Virus genome (UHGV): UHGV-1717814
DNA length: 10,525 nucleotides
Direction: 5' to 3' (one strand)
Origin: a virus
Translations under genes and position numbers: made by a program
The notes under the pieces: generated by a model
What the model saw: only the letters and a program-made list of their open reading frames with translations
Told to the model about the DNA's origin: nothing
Databases searched by the model: none
Part shown: piece after piece, positions 208 through 10,221 of the stretch
Layout of the letters: each line of letters opens with the position of its first letter
Position numbering within the stretch: the stretch's first letter is position 1

Positions 208-325
208 ACAGCAGGACGCCATTGCGATGACTTCATGCTGTAAACCAGTACAGCCACGGAAGGCATAACTCATTGCTTCCAGTTCGCCAGGTTCGCCGGG
301 CATTTTTTTTAGGTGAGAATAGACT

Positions 326-697
326 ATGAGTGACAAAGACATTGAATCTGAAATTCAGGCTAAAGGTTTAGCCGCGCCGCGCGTTACGCCAGACCATATC
401 GAGAGCATTATTGCTCAGGAGGCATATTTCACAGCAGAAGATGGTGTCTTTGGCGTAGCCATAAAAGCGAAACATACTGGCGGAGAGGTAAACTACCAGC
501 CGCACGAATCACTTTCTCTGCTGACATTCTGCGTTCTGGTGCTGCGCAACGGCTTCACCGTCACCGGAGAGAGCGCCTGTGCAAGCCCGGAAAACTTTGA
601 TGCGGAAATTGGTCGGAAGATTGCCCGGCAGAATGCTGTAAACAAAATCTGGATGCTTGAAGGTTACTTGCTGAAGCAGAAGTTAAGCGAGCAATAA
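326..697 (+). CDS. Small phage-associated protein, 123 aa; tentatively N4 gp49 / Sf6 gp66-like family
   Basis: ATG at 326 with GGTGAG 9 nt upstream; TAA at 695-697; followed by a terminator. Family assignment is from memory and not verified. Confidence 0.6.
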   Translation: MSDKDIESEIQAKGLAAPRVTPDHIESIIAQEAYFTAEDGVFGVAIKAKHTGGEVNYQPHESLSLLTFCVLVLRNGFTVTGESACASPENFDAEIGRKIARQNAVNKIWMLEGYLLKQKLSEQ

Positions 698-700
698 CCC

Positions 701-714
701 CGTGACATGTCACA
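701..714. repeat. 14-mer CGTGACATGTCACA, copy 1 (core is the 12-bp perfect palindrome GTGACATGTCAC)
   Basis: Read directly; an identical 14-mer is at 2966-2979. Confidence 0.8.
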
Positions 715-717
715 AAC

Positions 718-746
718 AGCCAGCCGATGAGCTGGCTTTGTTTTAT
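718..746 (+). terminator. Rho-independent terminator between the convergent 326-697 gene and terL
   Basis: AGCCAGC (718-724), loop cgatga, GCTGGCT (731-737), then TTGTTTTAT. Sits in the convergent intergenic gap; the T-run on the opposite strand is weak. Confidence 0.5.
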
Positions 747-787
747 CCTCACCAGAGGATATCAGCAGCATTATCCCCTCCAGAGGA

Positions 788-2263
788 TTAAGCATAGGGA
801 TAGTAATCTGTAATGGCCTTGCCTTGCTGGTTCTGCTGACCGGGAATTCGCAGACGCTTCGACACCGGGAAAGCAAACGTCAGCAGTAGCGCATCGCCTT
901 TACCCGGCGAACGCCCAAGCCGCTCCTTGATATCTTCCTTCGGTTCGATAACGATTTTACCGTCCACGCGAACTTTGTACTCTGCCGCCGACAGGTCGTC
1001 CGCTGTTTCCTGGTCATCCAGCATGCCGCCCAGCCTCAGCCATGTCTTGCATGCATTGAACATCTCCCCACGCTTGTTAAGCATCTGCGGGTCAGTGGAC
1101 GCACCGCCGAACGGAACAAGTTGCCATGTACGTCCCCAGCCATCACCGATTGACTTCAAACCGGTTCCGTAACCGAAGTCGATGAACACCGCGTCAGCCT
1201 GGTACTGGTCTTCAAAGTCAGCGATACGCTTCGCCATAATCAGATCGTCGGTGGTCTTGTTGCCAGTCCATAGCACCTTACTATGCAACCCCTGCCGCAG
1301 GTATATCACCGCGTCATCAACGCCTGAATATGCCGGGTCAACACCGATTATCACCGGTGCATGTGCCACCTGCGCAGCAGTTACCACCCGTTTCATTGCC
1401 TCGTCAGTAAGACCGGTAGGGATAAACTGCAATTCAGATGCATTAGGGAATATGCCGCGTACACGGATTTTAACGAAGTCGCTGTCTTCCCCGTAGTCAT
1501 CAACCCATTTCTGCAATTGCTGCTTGTTAGTACCTTCCACCGTCCGGCTGTCAATCTGCGCAGTTTTCCAGCGGTGTTTATATTTGCGGAAACATTCACG
1601 GAATCGCCCGGTATTACGCGTCGGGTTTCCGAACGCCACCCAGATAATCTCAGTGTCTTCGTCCGTTAGCGCACCTTCGGCAACTTCCCACACCAGATCC
1701 GCAATGTTCGACGCTTCATCGAATACCACGATAATACGTTTGCGCTCGTTGTGTAGTCCGGCGAATGCCTCAGTGTTGTGCTCAGACCAGGGAATTGCGT
1801 CAGCTCGCCACCGCTTGTCGTGCCCAGGATCATTGCTGTACATCGCGGTAGCGGTACAGGTAAACCAGTCTTTCGTGATAGCAAGGTTGGACCACTTGAT
1901 AATTTCCGGCCAGGTCTTCGTTCGTAGCTGGTTGTCGGTGTTGGCGGTCACCACGACCTTACAATCCTCGCAAGTGGACATGCCCCAGTTGATCAGCATT
2001 GAGATGAATGCGGATTTACCAATACCGTGACCAGAAGCACGTGCCAGCATAAGCGGCTGATAGCGCGTCTCTGGATTCTGCAGATGATCACGTATCTCTC
2101 GGAACGCATCGGCCTGCCACTGACGTGGACCGGTGGCATGTGCCAGTTCAGTACCCTCTTCCCCCCACGGGAACGCATAGAGGGCATAGCCAAGCGGATC
2201 GTGAGTGAACCCTGCAATATCCTCGATCAACTGCTCTTCAGGAGATAACGCTGTATCTGTCAC
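788..2263 (-). CDS. terL: Terminase large subunit (ATPase/nuclease), 491 aa
   Basis: Walker A-like SGHGIGKS near the N-terminus and acidic motifs (VVFDEAS, IIGVDPA) typical of terminase ATPase/nuclease domains. GTG start at 2261-2263 overlaps the terS stop (GTGA coupling). Confidence 0.85.
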   Translation of the reverse strand: MTDTALSPEEQLIEDIAGFTHDPLGYALYAFPWGEEGTELAHATGPRQWQADAFREIRDHLQNPETRYQPLMLARASGHGIGKSAFISMLINWGMSTCEDCKVVVTANTDNQLRTKTWPEIIKWSNLAITKDWFTCTATAMYSNDPGHDKRWRADAIPWSEHNTEAFAGLHNERKRIIVVFDEASNIADLVWEVAEGALTDEDTEIIWVAFGNPTRNTGRFRECFRKYKHRWKTAQIDSRTVEGTNKQQLQKWVDDYGEDSDFVKIRVRGIFPNASELQFIPTGLTDEAMKRVVTAAQVAHAPVIIGVDPAYSGVDDAVIYLRQGLHSKVLWTGNKTTDDLIMAKRIADFEDQYQADAVFIDFGYGTGLKSIGDGWGRTWQLVPFGGASTDPQMLNKRGEMFNACKTWLRLGGMLDDQETADDLSAAEYKVRVDGKIVIEPKEDIKERLGRSPGKGDALLLTFAFPVSKRLRIPGQQNQQGKAITDYYPYA

Positions 2264-2856
2264 TGATTACCATCCTGACGTTCTTTGAGTCGCTTCCTGG
2301 CTGCTGCTATGCGATCAGCAATTGTCACATTCACATTAACATCCAGACGTTCTTTGAACGCGTTGACATCAACATGCTTACCAATCAGTTCTAGGTTCTT
2401 CACCTTGTCAGGCCATTTAATTTTTTTGAGGATTGTCTCTATCGAATCCTCGTTCATGTTCATGATGGTCGATGACAGATCAAAGCCACTAAGCGTAGTG
2501 CGCCAGATTTTCGGCCACTCACGGATTGGTTTAAGGCTCCCATCGTCGTTGAGGATATCGATCACGTCCATCTGGTCGATCTCCACCAAGCGCATGAGAA
2601 CGTAATCAGCACTGACGCGCATTCGTTTGTTGCGCTCCTCCATCAACTCGGCAATCCGTTTTTGAATGCGTTCATCGCGCATCATGACACTGGCTTTAAC
2701 TGCCGCTGTATTTGGGGAGAATCCTGCGTTAATCGCTGCCTGAGTCTGGTTTTCAGGCGTTTTGATGTATGACTGGCAATAAGCCTCCTGCATTGCTGTG
2801 AGCGGCTTAAATTGCGTTGATTTGCGTTTATAGGTTTTAGGTTCAGCAGGCATCAT
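2260..2856 (-). CDS. terS: Terminase small subunit, about 198 aa
   Basis: LTAMQEAYCQSYI...AAINAGFSPNTAAVKAS...RIQKRIAELMEER matches the pattern I recall for phage terminase small subunits. The ORF-track start at 2934 is a TTG extension overlapping a terminator hairpin; I place the start at the tandem ATGs 2854-2856 / 2851-2853, preceded by GGTGG. Confidence 0.8.
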   Translation of the reverse strand: MMPAEPKTYKRKSTQFKPLTAMQEAYCQSYIKTPENQTQAAINAGFSPNTAAVKASVMMRDERIQKRIAELMEERNKRMRVSADYVLMRLVEIDQMDVIDILNDDGSLKPIREWPKIWRTTLSGFDLSSTIMNMNEDSIETILKKIKWPDKVKNLELIGKHVDVNAFKERLDVNVNVTIADRIAAARKRLKERQDGNQ

Positions 2857-2865
2857 AACCACCGT

Positions 2866-2895
2866 GGTAATAGTTACCGTTGTGGTAATAGTACC
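2866..2895. promoter_or_regulatory. Palindrome cluster directly upstream of terS: perfect TTACC-gttgt-GGTAA (2874-2888) flanked by extra GGTAA / TACC half-sites
   Basis: Read directly; same motif as at the immunity region. Lies between the terminator (2899-2925) and the terS start codon. Confidence 0.45.
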
Positions 2896-2898
2896 ATG

Positions 2899-2925
2899 CA
2901 AAATAAAGCCGCCATAGTTGGCGGC
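2899..2925 (-). terminator. Rho-independent terminator upstream of terS (minus-strand sense)
   Basis: GCCGCCA (2908-2914) pairs with TGGCGGC (2919-2925), loop TAGT. On the minus strand the hairpin is followed by TTTATTT (complement of 2901-2907). Confidence 0.55.
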
Positions 2926-2965
2926 AGTATTCAAAACCCGTCAAATTCATCATGCATAATCTACT

Positions 2966-2979
2966 CGTGACATGTCACA
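2966..2979. repeat. 14-mer CGTGACATGTCACA, copy 2
   Basis: Identical to 701-714. Overlaps the stop codon of the 2975-3322 ORF and lies about 40 nt upstream (in transcription sense) of the terS-proximal terminator. Confidence 0.8.
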
Positions 2980-3322
2980 CTATTAATTTCGTTTCATGCC
3001 AGCCTTTAGTCACCCAGCATTGCGAGTCACCATTACACGGGCATGAATTAACTGGAACTCTCTCGCCGCACTTACCGCAACGTTTTCTGCTGATCGATTT
3101 TATACGCCCGCGCACACGTGCATCATCCTGGCGGATCAGCAGCGCGATGTACTCGGCCATTTCATAGGGATCGCGACCAGGGCGCCGGGCGGCGCAGTTC
3201 CGCGCCAGCATTTCCTGCTCCTGCTTATCCAGCACCAGTTCAATTTTGCGCTCACCGGCGGCGGACTGCCGAGCGCGCTGCGCGGCTTTGCGTTCTGCGG
3301 GGGATTTAGCCACGAATCGCAC
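2975..3322 (-). CDS. Hypothetical basic protein (about 112-115 aa) with C-terminal Cys cluster CGKCG...CPCNGDSQC; possible DNA-binding regulator
   Basis: Long ORF on the operon strand. Start is uncertain: GTG at 3320-3322 or GTG at 3311-3313, which has GGAG 8 nt upstream. Function is inferred only from composition and position. Confidence 0.4.
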   Translation of the reverse strand: MRFVAKSPAERKAAQRARQSAAGERKIELVLDKQEQEMLARNCAARRPGRDPYEMAEYIALLIRQDDARVRGRIKSISRKRCGKCGERVPVNSCPCNGDSQCWVTKGWHETKLIV

Positions 3323-7039: not shown

Positions 7040-7116
7040 TTACCTCTGAGGTAATTAAAAACCACATAAGACACGAAATCAATAGGGTTTAGAATATTTT
7101 ATTACCTGATGGGTAA
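7040..7116 (-). promoter_or_regulatory. Operator-flanked promoter driving the accessory operon (minus strand)
   Basis: Perfect TTACC-N5-GGTAA at 7040-7054 and 7102-7116. Between them, on the minus strand: -35 TTGATT (7077-7082), 17-nt spacer, -10 TTTAAT (7054-7059). Same geometry as the PL-like region, including a 19-nt gap between the upstream operator and the -35. Confidence 0.5.
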
Positions 7117-7153: not shown

Positions 7154-7939
7154 TTACTTGATAAATCCTGCCGCCTTTCCCCGCCTGTATTCCTCCATCA
7201 GCCACTGCGCCGGTGTTATTCCCCCAAGGGTGGCGGCGTTAGGCATGCACCCGAAACTTCGCCCAGGTGGATGGTAAACGTCTCTCCCTGTGTCCGGAGG
7301 TGTACTCATGGGCTCTGGCTTTGCCTGTATGCTGATCACCGGATCGGGTATCTGCTGTCCGGAAGCCACCTTTTTCGCCCAATCATCGAGCAGCCTGCGC
7401 GCGTGTTTCTCAACCTCAATCTCGCTAAGCTGGCGCTGATACATTGCACGGCGGGTATCACATACGACCCAGTACATAACCGGATGTCGCCACGGGAATC
7501 TTTCGGGACCACCAGGATATAAACTTTTTTCCTTGCTGTACCGGTGAAACTCCGCCATCACATCGTCAATGGTGACGCCAAGAACCATCTTGCTGTCTTT
7601 ACACCACTTGATGAATTGCCCTGGCGACGGCCAGAACGGAGACTCACTGGCGCGGGCGTGGCGCATACCAGCAGAAACCTGTTCACGGGTTCGGATCCCC
7701 CCTTCGGCAAACGCAGCAATCCACTGCTGTTTTGCAGCAACTTCCTGCTCTGGCGTCTTCAGGTTGGTTACCACTGCCGCCGGAAACAGTTGTTTCAGCT
7801 GCTTGAAAAGGGCATCAACAAGCCTCTCTGCTGACATGTTCACTACGTTGTCATTGTTGGTGTACTGATGCTCATAACCTGACATGCGAGAAAGGGCTTC
7901 TCCGTCACGGTTTTGTATCGCGGTAAAAACGTTGTTCAC
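7154..7939 (-). CDS. Replication protein P-like (DnaB helicase loader), about 261 aa
   Basis: Segment LFKQLKQLFPAA...QQWIAAFAEGGIRTREQVSAGMRHARASESPFWPSPGQFIKWCKD aligns by eye with lambda P as I recall it (...RRQWVLAFRENGITTMEQVNAGMRVARRQNRPFLPSPGQFVAWCRE). ORF track begins at the GTG at 7954; I prefer the GTG at 7937-7939, which overlaps the O-like stop (GTGA) with GGAGGA 5 nt upstream. Confidence 0.85.
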   Translation of the reverse strand: MNNVFTAIQNRDGEALSRMSGYEHQYTNNDNVVNMSAERLVDALFKQLKQLFPAAVVTNLKTPEQEVAAKQQWIAAFAEGGIRTREQVSAGMRHARASESPFWPSPGQFIKWCKDSKMVLGVTIDDVMAEFHRYSKEKSLYPGGPERFPWRHPVMYWVVCDTRRAMYQRQLSEIEVEKHARRLLDDWAKKVASGQQIPDPVISIQAKPEPMSTPPDTGRDVYHPPGRSFGCMPNAATLGGITPAQWLMEEYRRGKAAGFIK

Positions 7940-8751
7940 AAGAAATCCTCCCACGCTTCAGGGCTGTTCCAGTGCGGAACGTTGTTATCAGGTAATGTTG
8001 ATTGCTTCTGTCTGCTAATCTGCAGCCGCCTTGCCAGCTTCTGCTCCCACTGTGCCTGATGGTATGCCTTACCCTCAGCCATCCAGTAAATTCTGAACTC
8101 TGCAAGTTCCTGTGCCGTTGGCAGACTGTCCAGGTAGATCCCCTGCAATGAGCTTTTCCGAAGAAAGTCATCTGATGGCTGCCATTGTTCATGCATGACA
8201 AATTTGCCTAATTGCCCTGGCCCACCAGGAGGAACAAAGTTATTCATCACGGCGTTGTTTGCGCCTGGGTCATGATGCACAGAATCCCCGTTTTTTGTCC
8301 TGCTCTCCCTCTCTTGGTTAAATGACTGGTTATATGACTGGTTCTGGATCCCGTTTTTGGGATCATTCAACATCCCGTTTTTGGGATCATTCAACATCCC
8401 GTTTTTGGGTATATTCCCGTTTTCGGTAACATTACCGTTTTCGGGTTCATTGCCCCCCTCTCGGTTGCCTTTAATGTTCCCGTTTTTGGTTATATTAAGA
8501 GAGAAAACCCGCACTCTTTTTGTCGCTCCCTTTCTCTCCCCGGTATCTGAAATAAGCCCCATTTTCATGAGCGATATAAGTCCGGCCTGCACGGTTTTTT
8601 TATTCAGGCAAGTGTCTTTAACGAGGCGTTCTATGCTGGGGTAGCAGAGGTTATATTCATCGGCTCTGTCAGCCATCGAGAGCAGTATGAGCTTTAATGA
8701 CGAGCTACCTGGATCTGTCTCCCAGGCCCAATCTGTTGCATGTCTGCTCAT
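7936..8751 (-). CDS. Replication initiator, O-like, 271 aa, with an internal low-complexity N/G/K-rich region encoded by the origin iterons
   Basis: Sits immediately upstream of, and coupled to, the P-like gene. Contains the iteron array at 8284-8497. ATG at 8749-8751 with GGAG 9 nt upstream. Confidence 0.75.
   Translation of the reverse strand: MSRHATDWAWETDPGSSSLKLILLSMADRADEYNLCYPSIERLVKDTCLNKKTVQAGLISLMKMGLISDTGERKGATKRVRVFSLNITKNGNIKGNREGGNEPENGNVTENGNIPKNGMLNDPKNGMLNDPKNGIQNQSYNQSFNQERESRTKNGDSVHHDPGANNAVMNNFVPPGGPGQLGKFVMHEQWQPSDDFLRKSSLQGIYLDSLPTAQELAEFRIYWMAEGKAYHQAQWEQKLARRLQISRQKQSTLPDNNVPHWNSPEAWEDFL
8284..8497. repeat. Iteron array, putative replication origin inside the O-like gene
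   Basis: Two perfect 24-bp direct repeats ATCCCGTTTTTGGGATCATTCAAC (8348-8371, 8372-8395) plus at least four degenerate copies sharing CCCGTTTT(T)GG (around 8284, 8396, 8417, 8435, 8478). Confidence 0.7.
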
Positions 8752-9047: not shown

Positions 9048-9062
9048 TTACCTTTGAGGTAC
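9048..9062. promoter_or_regulatory. Near-perfect operator-like palindrome TTACC-tttga-GGTAC
   Basis: One mismatch in the right half-site; lies just downstream of the cro-proximal terminator. Confidence 0.3.
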
Positions 9063-9384: not shown

Positions 9385-9447
9385 TCACCTATAAGGTAAC
9401 AAAAATCAAGGATAGTTACCCATGAGGTGCATTTACCTGTTGGGTAA
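9385..9447. promoter_or_regulatory. Tripartite OR-like operator region with divergent promoters
   Basis: TCACC-tataa-GGTAA (9385-9399), TTACC-catga-GGTGC (9416-9430), perfect TTACC-tgttg-GGTAA (9433-9447). Candidate minus-strand promoter for the Cro-like gene: TTGATT, 17 nt, GAATAT, overlapping the first two sites. Confidence 0.6.
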
Positions 9448-10144: not shown

Positions 10145-10221
10145 TTACCTAACGGGTAATTTTTTTAACTCATATCTATTGACATCAAACCATATACGCA
10201 TAATTATTACCTCAACGGTAA
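10145..10221 (+). promoter_or_regulatory. PL-like promoter flanked by two operators
   Basis: Perfect TTACC-taacg-GGTAA (10145-10159) and TTACC-tcaac-GGTAA (10207-10221). Between them: -35 TTGACA (10179-10184), 17-nt spacer, -10 AATTAT (10202-10207). Confidence 0.55.

Follow-up and report, generated by a model that had tools for sequence, protein, structure and literature searches.

A short palindrome found on either side of the terminase genes of a phiV10/epsilon15-like (Uetakevirus) prophage appears to be a selected multi-copy operator, most probably for a dimeric, ribbon-helix-helix (RHH)-like protein, here termed Reg, whose gene ends on one of the copies. Together with the neighbouring intrinsic terminators, the palindrome would constitute an operon-boundary element that also acts as a recombination joint; on comparative sequence evidence we give this reading a probability of about 0.5. 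The prophage, which adjoins guaA, is represented by a stretch of 10,525 nucleotides (UHGV virus genome UHGV-1717814), referred to throughout as the window.

The palindrome and its genomic setting

In agreement with the original prediction, the 14-mer CGTGACATGTCACA is present in two identical copies, at positions 701-714 and 2966-2979, each containing a perfect 12-bp palindrome, GTGACATGTCAC (702-713 and 2967-2978), hereafter PAL. The 14-mer is absent elsewhere in the window, and when up to two mismatches were permitted the only further matches were the same two sites on the other strand. The claim that such a repeat exceeds chance was also upheld, as 0.07 matches were expected from 200 dinucleotide shuffles and the observed count was reached by none of them (0/200).

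The first copy (site B) follows the stop codon of an exchangeable cargo gene by 4 nt. This gene (326-697, plus strand) encodes a member of the Gp49/Sf6 gp66 family (PF13876, E = 2.4e-35) and is convergent with terL. Beyond PAL lies the bidirectional terminator B (718-747, plus strand), which comprises a hairpin at 718-737 and a tail to approximately 747 with a good T-run on the plus strand, whilst on the minus strand it forms a weaker hairpin serving terL. At the second copy (site A), PAL positions 2-4 (window 2975-2977) are the TGA stop codon of the Reg gene (2975-3313, minus strand; 112 aa), which has a GTG start at 3313 within an open frame that reaches 3322. The early (Reg) transcript is ended upstream of terS by terminator A (2898-2925, minus strand; hairpin 2925-2908, tail to approximately 2898), which is kept in relatives, the epsilon15 equivalent being annotated at 39646-39672. 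PAL hence precedes a terminator both for the plus-strand transcript of gene 326-697 and for the minus-strand transcript of gene 2975-3313. It had been proposed that each copy sits immediately upstream of a terminator in transcription sense; the order is correct at both copies, but immediacy applies only to the first, where 3 nt separate PAL from the hairpin, the second copy being 41 nt upstream. Between PAL and terminator A is a mini-ORF of eight codons, MHDEFDGF (2931-2957, minus strand), whose stop codon is 5 nt before the hairpin. This mini-ORF recurs at sites A and B in several genera with synonymous variation, and in its conserved form, MxDEFDGF, the stop codon is separated by 5 nt from terminator A or by 4 nt from PAL.

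The two terminator/PAL pairs enclose the packaging operon (788-2853, minus strand), consisting of terS (2260-2853) and terL (788-2263), as assigned from PF03592, phrog_2 and annotations. Directly upstream of terS, at 2856-2888, are two TTACC-N5-GGTAA operators of a CI-type prophage repressor, a motif with nine sites in the window against 0.18 expected, and the RefSeq record of epsilon15 has 'repressor' sites annotated upstream of terS, gp3 and gp20. The two operators point to a repressor-controlled promoter belonging to terS-terL itself. The bracketing of terS-terL by PAL is accurate as to position, but it is incidental: PAL stands at the 3' end of each neighbouring unit, the early operon on one side and the convergent cargo gene on the other, both of which run towards the packaging operon.

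Across 98 distinct PAL contexts, a terminator-like hairpin starting no more than 5 nt 3' of PAL was found in 23, compared with 2 of 400 control positions. PAL is an element separate from the hairpin: the terminator hairpins, which have at least six different sequences, follow it at a distance of 0-45 nt, and PAL was for this reason not classed as part of an intrinsic terminator (a GC-rich stem followed by a U-run). Two promoter readings were likewise discarded. The candidate GTGACA-N18-CATGAT at site A, whose GTGACA is part of PAL, is lost in the form with a 186-bp insertion, in epsilon15 and in the Klebsiella phages. Under a second candidate, TTAATA-N17-TAGATT, PAL would have occupied the spacer of a promoter, an arrangement like that of P1 late promoters and the lambda QBE; this candidate is present only in the E. 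coli short form, whereas the form carrying the 186-bp insertion, epsilon15 and the Klebsiella phages are without it, and a -10 is missing altogether from site B.

Conservation of PAL and its linkage to Reg

The possibility that the palindrome is missing from relatives with the same terminase genes had been raised at the outset and was checked. Exact PAL was present at site A in 77 of 79 close relatives and at site B in 52 of 58 that were assessable, and it was exact at both sites even in Salmonella epsilon15 and Klebsiella Kp4865-1, in which the terminase genes are approximately 81% identical.

Reg corresponds to phrog_536 and to epsilon15 gp49, and matched no Pfam family. The Reg family comprises at least 786 database clusters, the source names of which are all 'hypothetical' or 'uncharacterised protein', and none of these matches Pfam. 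The N-terminus of the protein is basic and ARM-like (AERKAAQRARQ); its core is predicted to be strand-helix-helix, and its C-terminal part bears a Cys4 motif. Structural matches to the RHH superfamily were weak, and tentatively suggest an RHH-like fold.

In a survey of 47 Reg homologues from 47 species (48-88% amino acid identity), which were not selected for PAL, exact PAL was found on or next to the stop codon in 29, with a one-mismatch form in seven more. Several of the remaining loci have PAL elsewhere, such as that of Providencia, where it is 20 nt upstream of the Reg ATG, and about 10 of the 47 Reg genes were without an adjacent PAL. Of 21 divergent homologues, 20 had the Reg stop codon within PAL, and the last Reg codon was NTG (V, L or M) before the TGA within PAL, which points to a constraint at the DNA level and not at the protein level. 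A stop codon followed by exactly 4 nt and then PAL was observed in 15 distinct contexts, with 0.6 expected. This strict phasing with the stop codon is unexplained by a pure DNA-operator model. The linkage of Reg and PAL spans phage types that share no neighbouring genes, and taxonomically PAL is essentially confined to the Enterobacterales. Some high-GC viral contigs (L103, L122, L132, L151 and L189) contain GTGAC/GTCACGC repeat arrays around PAL-like 14-mers; these arrays look like unrelated iterons within replication-type genes and were set aside.

Motif architecture and copy number

PAL takes the form GTGAC-N2-GTCAC (here GTGAC-AT-GTCAC), which occurred 59 times in 557 kb against 0.5 expected; spacers of 0, 1 or 3-8 nt were found between zero and two times each in the same sequence. 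The arms are invariant and the centre is approximately 15 times more variable per position. The half-sites are identical to those of matS (GTGACRNYGTCAC), the MatP site of the E. coli Ter macrodomain, with the PAL spacer one base shorter. matS is defined as the 13-bp motif GTGAC-RNY-GTCAC (PMC6907758), and PAL, at 12 bp with a 2-nt instead of a 3-nt centre, falls outside it; no matS-type site was encountered in the 557 kb. The matS sites belong to the chromosome, where they are restricted to Ter, and prophages lack them (PMC3603311), whereas PAL goes with stop codons and terminators. MatP has a four-helix bundle and a coiled coil, both of which Reg lacks, and no significant sequence similarity was detected between the two proteins.

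Several PAL copies were present in every Reg-encoding genome examined. The genome of epsilon15 has exactly three, all at operon ends, with the gp18 stop codon inside PAL, and the third marks the end of the structural operon. Among unrelated phages that are Reg-positive, myovirus ZF40 likewise has three copies and N15 has three copies of its own variant, GTGACTGGTCAC; lambda, without Reg, has none. A comparison of Reg beta-strand residues with PAL variants showed no informative pattern among close homologues, and only the distant N15 pair differs. PAL also occurs in P2-like prophages, and copies were found inside conserved genes (a cII-like gene and repA) without mosaicism. Two of the three sites in both ZF40 and N15 are inside genes, away from terminators, hence a terminator-linked role cannot be general. 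Searches of the available literature library retrieved no paper containing GTGACATGTCAC and, for the N15 variant, only two unrelated mammalian-cell papers, whilst the ZX5 paper leaves the PAL element unmentioned.

A site for a dimeric regulator was one of the roles originally suggested, and it is the one that the comparative evidence favours, given the invariant half-sites, the linked regulator-like gene, the several copies per genome and the N15 variant. Reg is the candidate PAL-binding protein; we infer both its binding and the effect of that binding. In phiV10/epsilon15-like phages, transcription units have PAL copies at their 3' ends: each copy overlaps the final stop codon or comes 4 nt beyond it, with an intrinsic terminator 0-45 nt further on, and would form with that terminator an operon-boundary element. 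In the window, one copy closes the early operon ahead of the repressor-controlled terS-terL operon, and the other closes the convergent tRNA/cargo unit before it would run antisense into terL. Bound Reg could act on elongating RNA polymerase, either as a roadblock or as a modulator of terminator efficiency, and the short homology provided by PAL and its terminator would, as a by-product, be where cargo ORFs are replaced.

Mosaic joints at PAL

In relatives the cargo ORF is replaced by unrelated ORFs, with breakpoints at approximately 316-320 and 700, and cargo breakpoints fall at PAL +0 to +9 nt. The upstream flank of this slot (286-316, plus strand), a degenerate terminator hairpin and T8 that lead directly into the SD AGGTGA, represents a second conserved joint. 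In a tandem-cassette locus (L043), the inter-cassette unit consists of PAL, a terminator, T7 and an SD. The 186-bp insertion just inside site A starts 2 nt after PAL, and in some relatives the last 350 nt or so of terL and its terminator have been replaced, again with PAL as the boundary. Since PAL and the terminator are constant while the surrounding accessory DNA varies, mosaic joints coincide with PAL.

The earlier suggestion that PAL is a boundary for exchange of the packaging module was therefore only partly borne out: mosaic breakpoints do lie exactly at PAL, but the packaging module was not swapped as a unit in the sample examined. The exchanged DNA is chiefly the accessory ORF beyond that module, the 186-bp insertion and, in some relatives, the terL 3' end. 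An apparent terS allele of 82% identity proved to be an artefact of fixed-coordinate windows, the true difference being limited to the last 350 nt or so of terL. A module swap at site A was also rejected, as the two reg alleles break approximately 160 nt upstream of PAL, inside reg. The phage encodes a RecT/exonuclease pair.

Alternative explanations

It is unlikely that PAL functions at the RNA level, with the transcribed palindrome hairpin or a UGA-C-AUG stop/start junction coupling the end of translation to what becomes of the transcript at the adjacent terminator. Such an element could be a nut/boxB-like site for the arginine-rich N-terminus of Reg, or a ribosome-dependent attenuator involving the mini-ORF. 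It would accommodate the fixed phase of the stop codon (within PAL, or preceding it by exactly 4 nt, in the 15 contexts), the conserved MxDEFDGF mini-ORF near terminator A or PAL, the ARM-like sequence AERKAAQRARQ, the location of PAL upstream of terminators in transcript sense, and the one-mismatch variants, which are mostly in the central 4 nt or G-U compatible. However, the hairpin has only a 4-bp stem (-2.7 kcal/mol), and positions 5 and 8 (C and G) show the same invariance as the stem although a 2-nt loop would prevent their pairing; PAL behaves as two 5-bp half-sites. No compensatory changes and no boxA-like partner were seen, and neither the intragenic copies of ZF40 and N15 nor the Providencia copy upstream of Reg fit an RNA signal coupled to a terminator. 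A lambda-type nut site (boxA/boxB) was rejected on the same short stem with its CAUG loop, the lack of boxA and of covariation, and the invariant arms, and Q-type antitermination, with a QBE in a late promoter, because TTAATA-N17-TAGATT is confined to the E. coli short form. PAL may have the antiterminator role named in the original prediction, but no conserved promoter/qut-like or nut-like arrangement accompanies PAL.

A purely recombinational role, in which PAL is a short conserved linker, or the target of a site- or structure-specific enzyme, serving only accessory-cassette shuffling (compare the PeSLs of T4-like phages and attC), seems quite unlikely. The positions of the cargo breakpoints, the L043 cassettes parted by PAL, terminator and SD, the start of the 186-bp insertion, the replaced terL 3' end and the phage-encoded RecT/exonuclease pair would all suit it, yet it leaves unexplained the tight link to the Reg stop codon across phage types, the copies within the conserved cII-like gene and repA, and the N15-specific variant. 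Moreover, 12 bp alone do not suffice for efficient homologous exchange, no dedicated recombinase is linked, and some breakpoints near site A are those some 160 nt away inside reg. We consider it very improbable that PAL is the site of a host protein, MatP or another Enterobacterales factor, used in nucleoid positioning or transcription control and only indirectly connected with Reg. Its half-sites are those of matS, its range is essentially Enterobacterales, and with true matS absent from prophages (PMC3603311) a near-matS could be a tolerated mimic; the spacer, however, is 2 nt and never 3 (59 versus 0 in 557 kb), the N15 centre differs in all three copies, tracking its divergent Reg and not the host, one PAL copy is tied to reg, and lambda, which is without Reg, has none. 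A packaging signal, that is, a pac or cos site recognised by terminase and hence flanking terS-terL, is extremely doubtful. PAL is close to terS, has the twofold symmetry typical of nicking sites and contains the points at which the phiV10 and Tyrion GenBank records were linearised, but the cuts do no more than follow the final stop codon, and Tyrion has been reported as circularly permuted and terminally redundant (PMC5754475). There are also three copies per genome, one of those in epsilon15 being 17 kb away, and PAL is found in phages whose terminases are unrelated, namely N15 (lambda-type cos), P2-like prophages and ZF40, and it was not assigned to the cos/pac class.

Comparison with known systems

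The stoperators of cluster A mycobacteriophages such as L5 and Bxb1 stop elongating polymerase (PMC9283540). Stoperators and PAL are both short, multi-copy sequences of repressor-site type, dispersed in a phage genome and often found in short intergenic gaps at or overlapping stop codons. Stoperators are asymmetric and oriented, number approximately 20-30 copies and are bound by a monomeric immunity repressor, whereas PAL is a perfect palindrome in two to three copies and is distinct from the CI-type operators of the phage. PAL occupies a stoperator-like position at stop codons without being one of many asymmetric, co-oriented repressor sites, and a block to elongation, unlike that at stoperators, is one that we infer. 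The PeSLs of T4-type phages are composite regulatory motifs with a terminator stem-loop, linked to modular shuffling (PMC2839356, PMC4122927). Like the PAL, terminator and SD unit of L043, they flank small variable ORFs and offer homology for shuffling, and a stem-loop, a flanking position and breakpoints are all present at PAL. PeSLs, however, include an early promoter but lack a separate protein-binding palindrome, whereas the PAL unit has no evident promoter and no conserved one was found; PAL, unlike PeSL, also occurs apart from cassettes and is linked to a regulator gene.

As a candidate pair, Reg and PAL would resemble P22 Arc and Mnt, CopG, MetJ and the RHH antitoxins, in which a small dimeric beta-sheet DNA binder recognises a short symmetric site adjoining its gene, and PAL is indeed short and symmetric, with genetic linkage to a regulator-like gene. 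Reg differs from RHH repressors in its extra C-terminal Cys4 module, and PAL is at gene 3' ends and operon ends whereas RHH operators are over the promoter. A position 3' of the gene is unusual for an operator and counts against the operator reading. The cargo ORF, with its own terminator between core genes, resembles the morons of lambdoid phages, although its slot, in comparison with these, has no recognisable promoter. As the last early-operon gene before a terminator and late genes, Reg is placed like lambda Q; unlike in Q/qut, no conserved promoter/qut arrangement follows PAL, and terS has its own repressor-controlled promoter. Lambdoid prophages with Reg also encode a separate Q.

Implications

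It is conceivable, though doubtful, that Reg and PAL constitute an unrecognised, widespread phage system built from a small protein of RHH-plus-zinc type and a 12-bp, matS-like site at operon ends. Such a system would set transcription boundaries programmed by a protein, helping or gating intrinsic terminators in register with the final stop codon, and would furnish a universal docking joint for trading accessory genes between unrelated temperate phages. Its scope would take in podo-, myo- and siphoviral prophages along with the linear plasmid-prophage N15. Should Reg bind PAL, the two would be a new regulator-operator pair common to many temperate phages of the Enterobacterales, including the model phages epsilon15, phiV10 and N15. 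This would supply a function for the Reg family, with its 786 or more database clusters, and would explain the insulation of the early, packaging, structural and accessory transcription units in Uetakeviruses. For annotation of these prophages, GTGAC-N2-GTCAC offers a simple marker both of operon ends and of variable cargo slots.

Gene layout and the PAL repeat

The window is 99.9% identical to an E. coli prophage beside guaA, approximately 95-97% identical to the phiV10-like phages (genus Uetakevirus) and, across its terminase genes, approximately 81% identical to Salmonella phage epsilon15. The minus strand carries, in order, Reg (2975-3313), with which the early region ends; the second PAL copy (site A, 2966-2979), which holds the TGA stop of Reg; an 8-codon mini-ORF (2931-2957); terminator A (2898-2925); two operators; terS (2260-2853); terL (788-2263); terminator B (718-747, plus strand); and the first PAL copy (site B, 701-714). 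Convergent with the packaging genes are a phage tRNA-Arg(UCU) (46-122, plus strand) and a Gp49/Sf6-gp66 family gene (326-697, plus strand), whose stop codon lies 4 nt before site B.

A whole-window scan located the 14-mer CGTGACATGTCACA at these two sites only, and its 12-bp core, GTGACATGTCAC (PAL), is perfectly palindromic. When up to two mismatches were allowed, 200 dinucleotide-preserving shuffles of the window yielded a mean of 0.07 matches and none reached the observed number, upholding the original prediction that the exact repeat exceeds chance. The terminators proposed near both copies were likewise recovered, each with a T-run (718-737, plus strand; 2925-2908, minus strand), and both PAL copies lie outside the terminators enclosing terS-terL, that is, before the terminator in the sense of incoming transcription.

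Nine TTACC-N5-GGTAA palindromes were found in the window against 0.18 expected. Two (2856-2870 and 2874-2888) are directly 5' of terS and the others occupy 7040-7054, 7102-7116, 9048-9062, 9385-9399, 9433-9447, 10145-10159 and 10207-10221. They match the 'repressor' sites of the epsilon15 RefSeq record upstream of terS, gp3 and gp20 and are CI-type repressor operators. Gene order, terminators and repressor operators together thus delimit terS-terL as a separate repressor-controlled operon between terminators, which the prophage repressor appears to control directly, in agreement with the epsilon15 annotation.

Elsewhere in the window, two structures follow the tRNA-Arg(UCU): a hairpin with a 14-bp stem (166-201), then another inverted repeat (205-244). 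Similarity to most relatives starts only at base 31, hence there is a further mosaic joint a short distance 5' of this tRNA. Direct repeats of 24 nt (ATCCCGTTTTTGGGATCATTCAAC and divergent versions of it), arrayed at 8348-8497 inside the ORF at 7936-8751 (minus strand), look like origin iterons within a replication initiator gene.

Conservation of PAL and its linkage to Reg

Among 80 IMG/VR relatives with TerL 98-99% identical, PAL was exact at site A in 77 of 79 assessable loci and at site B in 52 of 58. Both sites were also exact in epsilon15 and Klebsiella phage Kp4865-1, in which the intergenic flanks could not be aligned, and the condition originally set for refutation, loss of the palindrome from relatives that keep the same terminase, is therefore not what was observed. 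Epsilon15 has exactly three copies in its 39.7 kb: one follows gp49 (its Reg), another follows the cargo gene that converges on terL, and the copy at 19517 contains the TGA stop of gp18, with which the structural operon ends, and lies 2 nt before an annotated terminator (19531-19556). In many E. coli relatives, as in epsilon15, this third slot comprises a small gene ending GGGIR*, the hairpin GGCCGCGAAAGCGGCC and then PAL; in the window's own prophage, beyond the window (L003, 3362-3400), TGTTTGATCAC follows GGCCGCGAAAGCGGCC in place of PAL.

The 112-aa Reg protein matches phrog_536 ('transcriptional regulator'), and its sequence returned no matches in Pfam, NCBIfam or the PDB. A database search retrieved 786 cluster representatives of the family, the best 120 of which had no precomputed Pfam domains and, where named, were only 'hypothetical', 'uncharacterised' or 'phage protein'; the family is unannotated. 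An AlphaFold model of moderate confidence (pLDDT 68) places a basic helix at the N-terminus, followed by an extended segment, helices at residues 30-43 and 52-67 and a Cys4 C-terminus. A ribbon-helix-helix fold is predicted and considered likely.

Alignment of Reg proteins, with no selection for PAL, gave 47 loci from 47 species genomes (48-88% identity), ranging from Citrobacter and Klebsiella to Xenorhabdus, Serratia, Yersinia and Providencia. An exact PAL lay on or just after the Reg stop codon in 29 of the 47, and a PAL with one mismatch in seven more; several remaining loci had it at another place in the 10-kb locus, including 20 nt upstream of the Reg start in Providencia. The DNA 3' of Reg differs by group, being terS-terL, lambdoid nin genes, P2-type portal/terminase genes or PrtN-like genes at an island end, and by sequence these are unrelated. 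In most homologues the Reg stop is the TGA at PAL positions 2-4, preceded by an NTG codon (V, L or M), and the constraint is therefore on DNA rather than protein. Phages ZF40, Chlobot and PAT1 carry an exact PAL at the Reg stop, and N15, whose gp46 is 37% identical to Reg, has GTGACTGGTCAC there.

Site architecture and copy number

Within 557 kb of species-dereplicated Reg loci, GTGAC-N2-GTCAC occurred 59 times against 0.5 expected, with an AT centre in 49, and the same arms at spacers of 0, 1 or 3-8 nt occurred 0-2 times. The unit therefore consists of two inverted 5-bp half-sites around a 2-bp centre under looser constraint, which is the sequence signature of a symmetric-dimer site.

Three exact PALs are present in myovirus ZF40: one follows Reg, one lies in a cII-like gene and one in gp08. 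The cII-gene copy recurs in Yersinia, Rouxiella and IMG/VR contigs. Across distant genera (ZF40, L264, at 7622; L246 at 417; L248 at 732; L100, L109 and L116) this copy encodes G-[C/R]-D-M-S amid varying neighbouring codons in genomes that also encode Reg, a DNA-level constraint inside a coding region. N15 (L267) carries GTGACTGGTCAC three times (28550, 33237 and 39269): once at the gp46 stop, once within repA and once, inverted, in the stretch from gene 33 to the terminator preceding gene 32; the inverted copy suggests that a Reg-type protein is tied to N15 regulatory circuits. No copies were found in lambda, which lacks Reg. The strongest indirect support for a Reg-type protein reading the site is this variant that tracks a divergent orthologue. 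Separately, the GTCACGC/GTGAC clusters around a chance 14-mer match in replication-type ORFs of high-GC IMG/VR contigs (L103, L122, L132, L151 and L189) are probably unrelated iterons for another protein.

Terminators, stop codons and cargo exchange

Of 98 distinct PAL contexts, 23 had a hairpin and T-run starting no more than 5 nt to the 3' side and 36 had one within 50 nt, compared with 2 and 24 of 400 positions drawn at random from the same DNA; the abutting terminators comprise at least six different sequences. PAL is not always terminator-proximal: copies also lie inside genes (ZF40 cII-like and gp08; N15 repA). In 15 distinct contexts (0.6 expected) an ORF of at least 60 codons had its stop at a distance of exactly 4 nt from PAL, on the 5' side, and many others stop at its internal TGA, a phasing that a simple operator model does not explain.

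The mini-ORF (M-x-[D/Y]-E-F-D-[G/V/R/A]-F-stop) was also observed in L016, L205 (epsilon15), L212, L214 and L224, in prophages of E. coli, Salmonella, Scandinavium, Superficieibacter and Buttiauxella. Two positions were seen for it: 5 nt ahead of terminator A, or at site B, 4 nt ahead of PAL. Its codon changes are synonymous, all three stop codons occur, and it equals the C-terminus of a 70-aa phrog_1541 protein that other relatives have in the slot. The mini-ORF may have been left behind by a deletion or may encode a regulatory leader peptide.

Past terL, the terminator and PAL are constant, and the ~380 bp that follow hold any one of several unrelated ORFs, which share a single slot: a Gp49 family gene, phrog_27507, one of three C-terminal variants of phrog_4846, or an 8-codon remnant. 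Homology stops 0 to 9 nt beyond PAL and restarts at the Shine-Dalgarno (SD) sequence just 5' of the ORF start codon. In L043, two tandem cassettes are joined by PAL, terminator, T7 and SD. In the window, a degenerate terminator hairpin and T8 (286-316) run straight into the cargo SD (AGGTGA), leaving no room for a promoter, so that expression of the gene may depend on read-through from the upstream tRNA-Arg unit.

At site A, a 186-bp insertion (phrog_1541 ORF) starts 2 nt after PAL in about a quarter of relatives. The PAL-terS slot of L209, L210 and L216 (Citrobacter, Pseudocitrobacter and Kluyvera prophages) holds a TTGAC(T/G)-N17-TACTGT promoter, overlapping a LexA-box-like CTGT-N8-ACAG, and then an ORF of ~85 aa, which may be an SOS-controlled antirepressor cassette. 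In one group of relatives a replacement that reaches as far as PAL takes in the terminator and the final ~350 nt of terL. These joints agree with the suggestion that PAL marks mosaic breakpoints, although the two reg alleles diverge ~160 nt upstream of it.

Interpretation of the proposed Reg/PAL pair

The best-supported reading of these sequence comparisons is that PAL is the operator of a dimeric Reg, the two forming a candidate pair, and is sited, along with intrinsic terminators, where transcription units end. A Reg dimer bound there would be a roadblock to elongating polymerase or would modulate the terminator. Because it is constant, PAL also serves as the homology for the exchange of cargo genes. 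A purely recombinational role leaves the Reg linkage and the intragenic copies unaccounted for, and a host-factor site fails to account for the N15 variant. An RNA-level role is weakened by a PAL hairpin of just -2.7 kcal/mol and by the invariance of positions unable to pair. A packaging site, as the position beside terS-terL might imply, is contradicted by the circular permutation of Tyrion and by the occurrence of PAL in phages whose terminases are unrelated.

Amongst known systems, the closest parallels are matS/MatP, with half-sites identical to those of PAL and a spacer one base longer, the mycobacteriophage stoperators and the PeSL cassettes of T4-type phages. GTGACATGTCAC had no occurrences in the searchable literature, in which the N15 variant GTGACTGGTCAC returned only two unrelated mammalian-cell papers. 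Regulators whose operators are dispersed are already known in kind, as are conserved regulatory motifs at which shuffling occurs; what appear to be new are the proposed Reg/PAL pair itself, its matS-like site, the placement of that site by stop codons and terminators, and the range of unrelated temperate phages over which the pair is spread.
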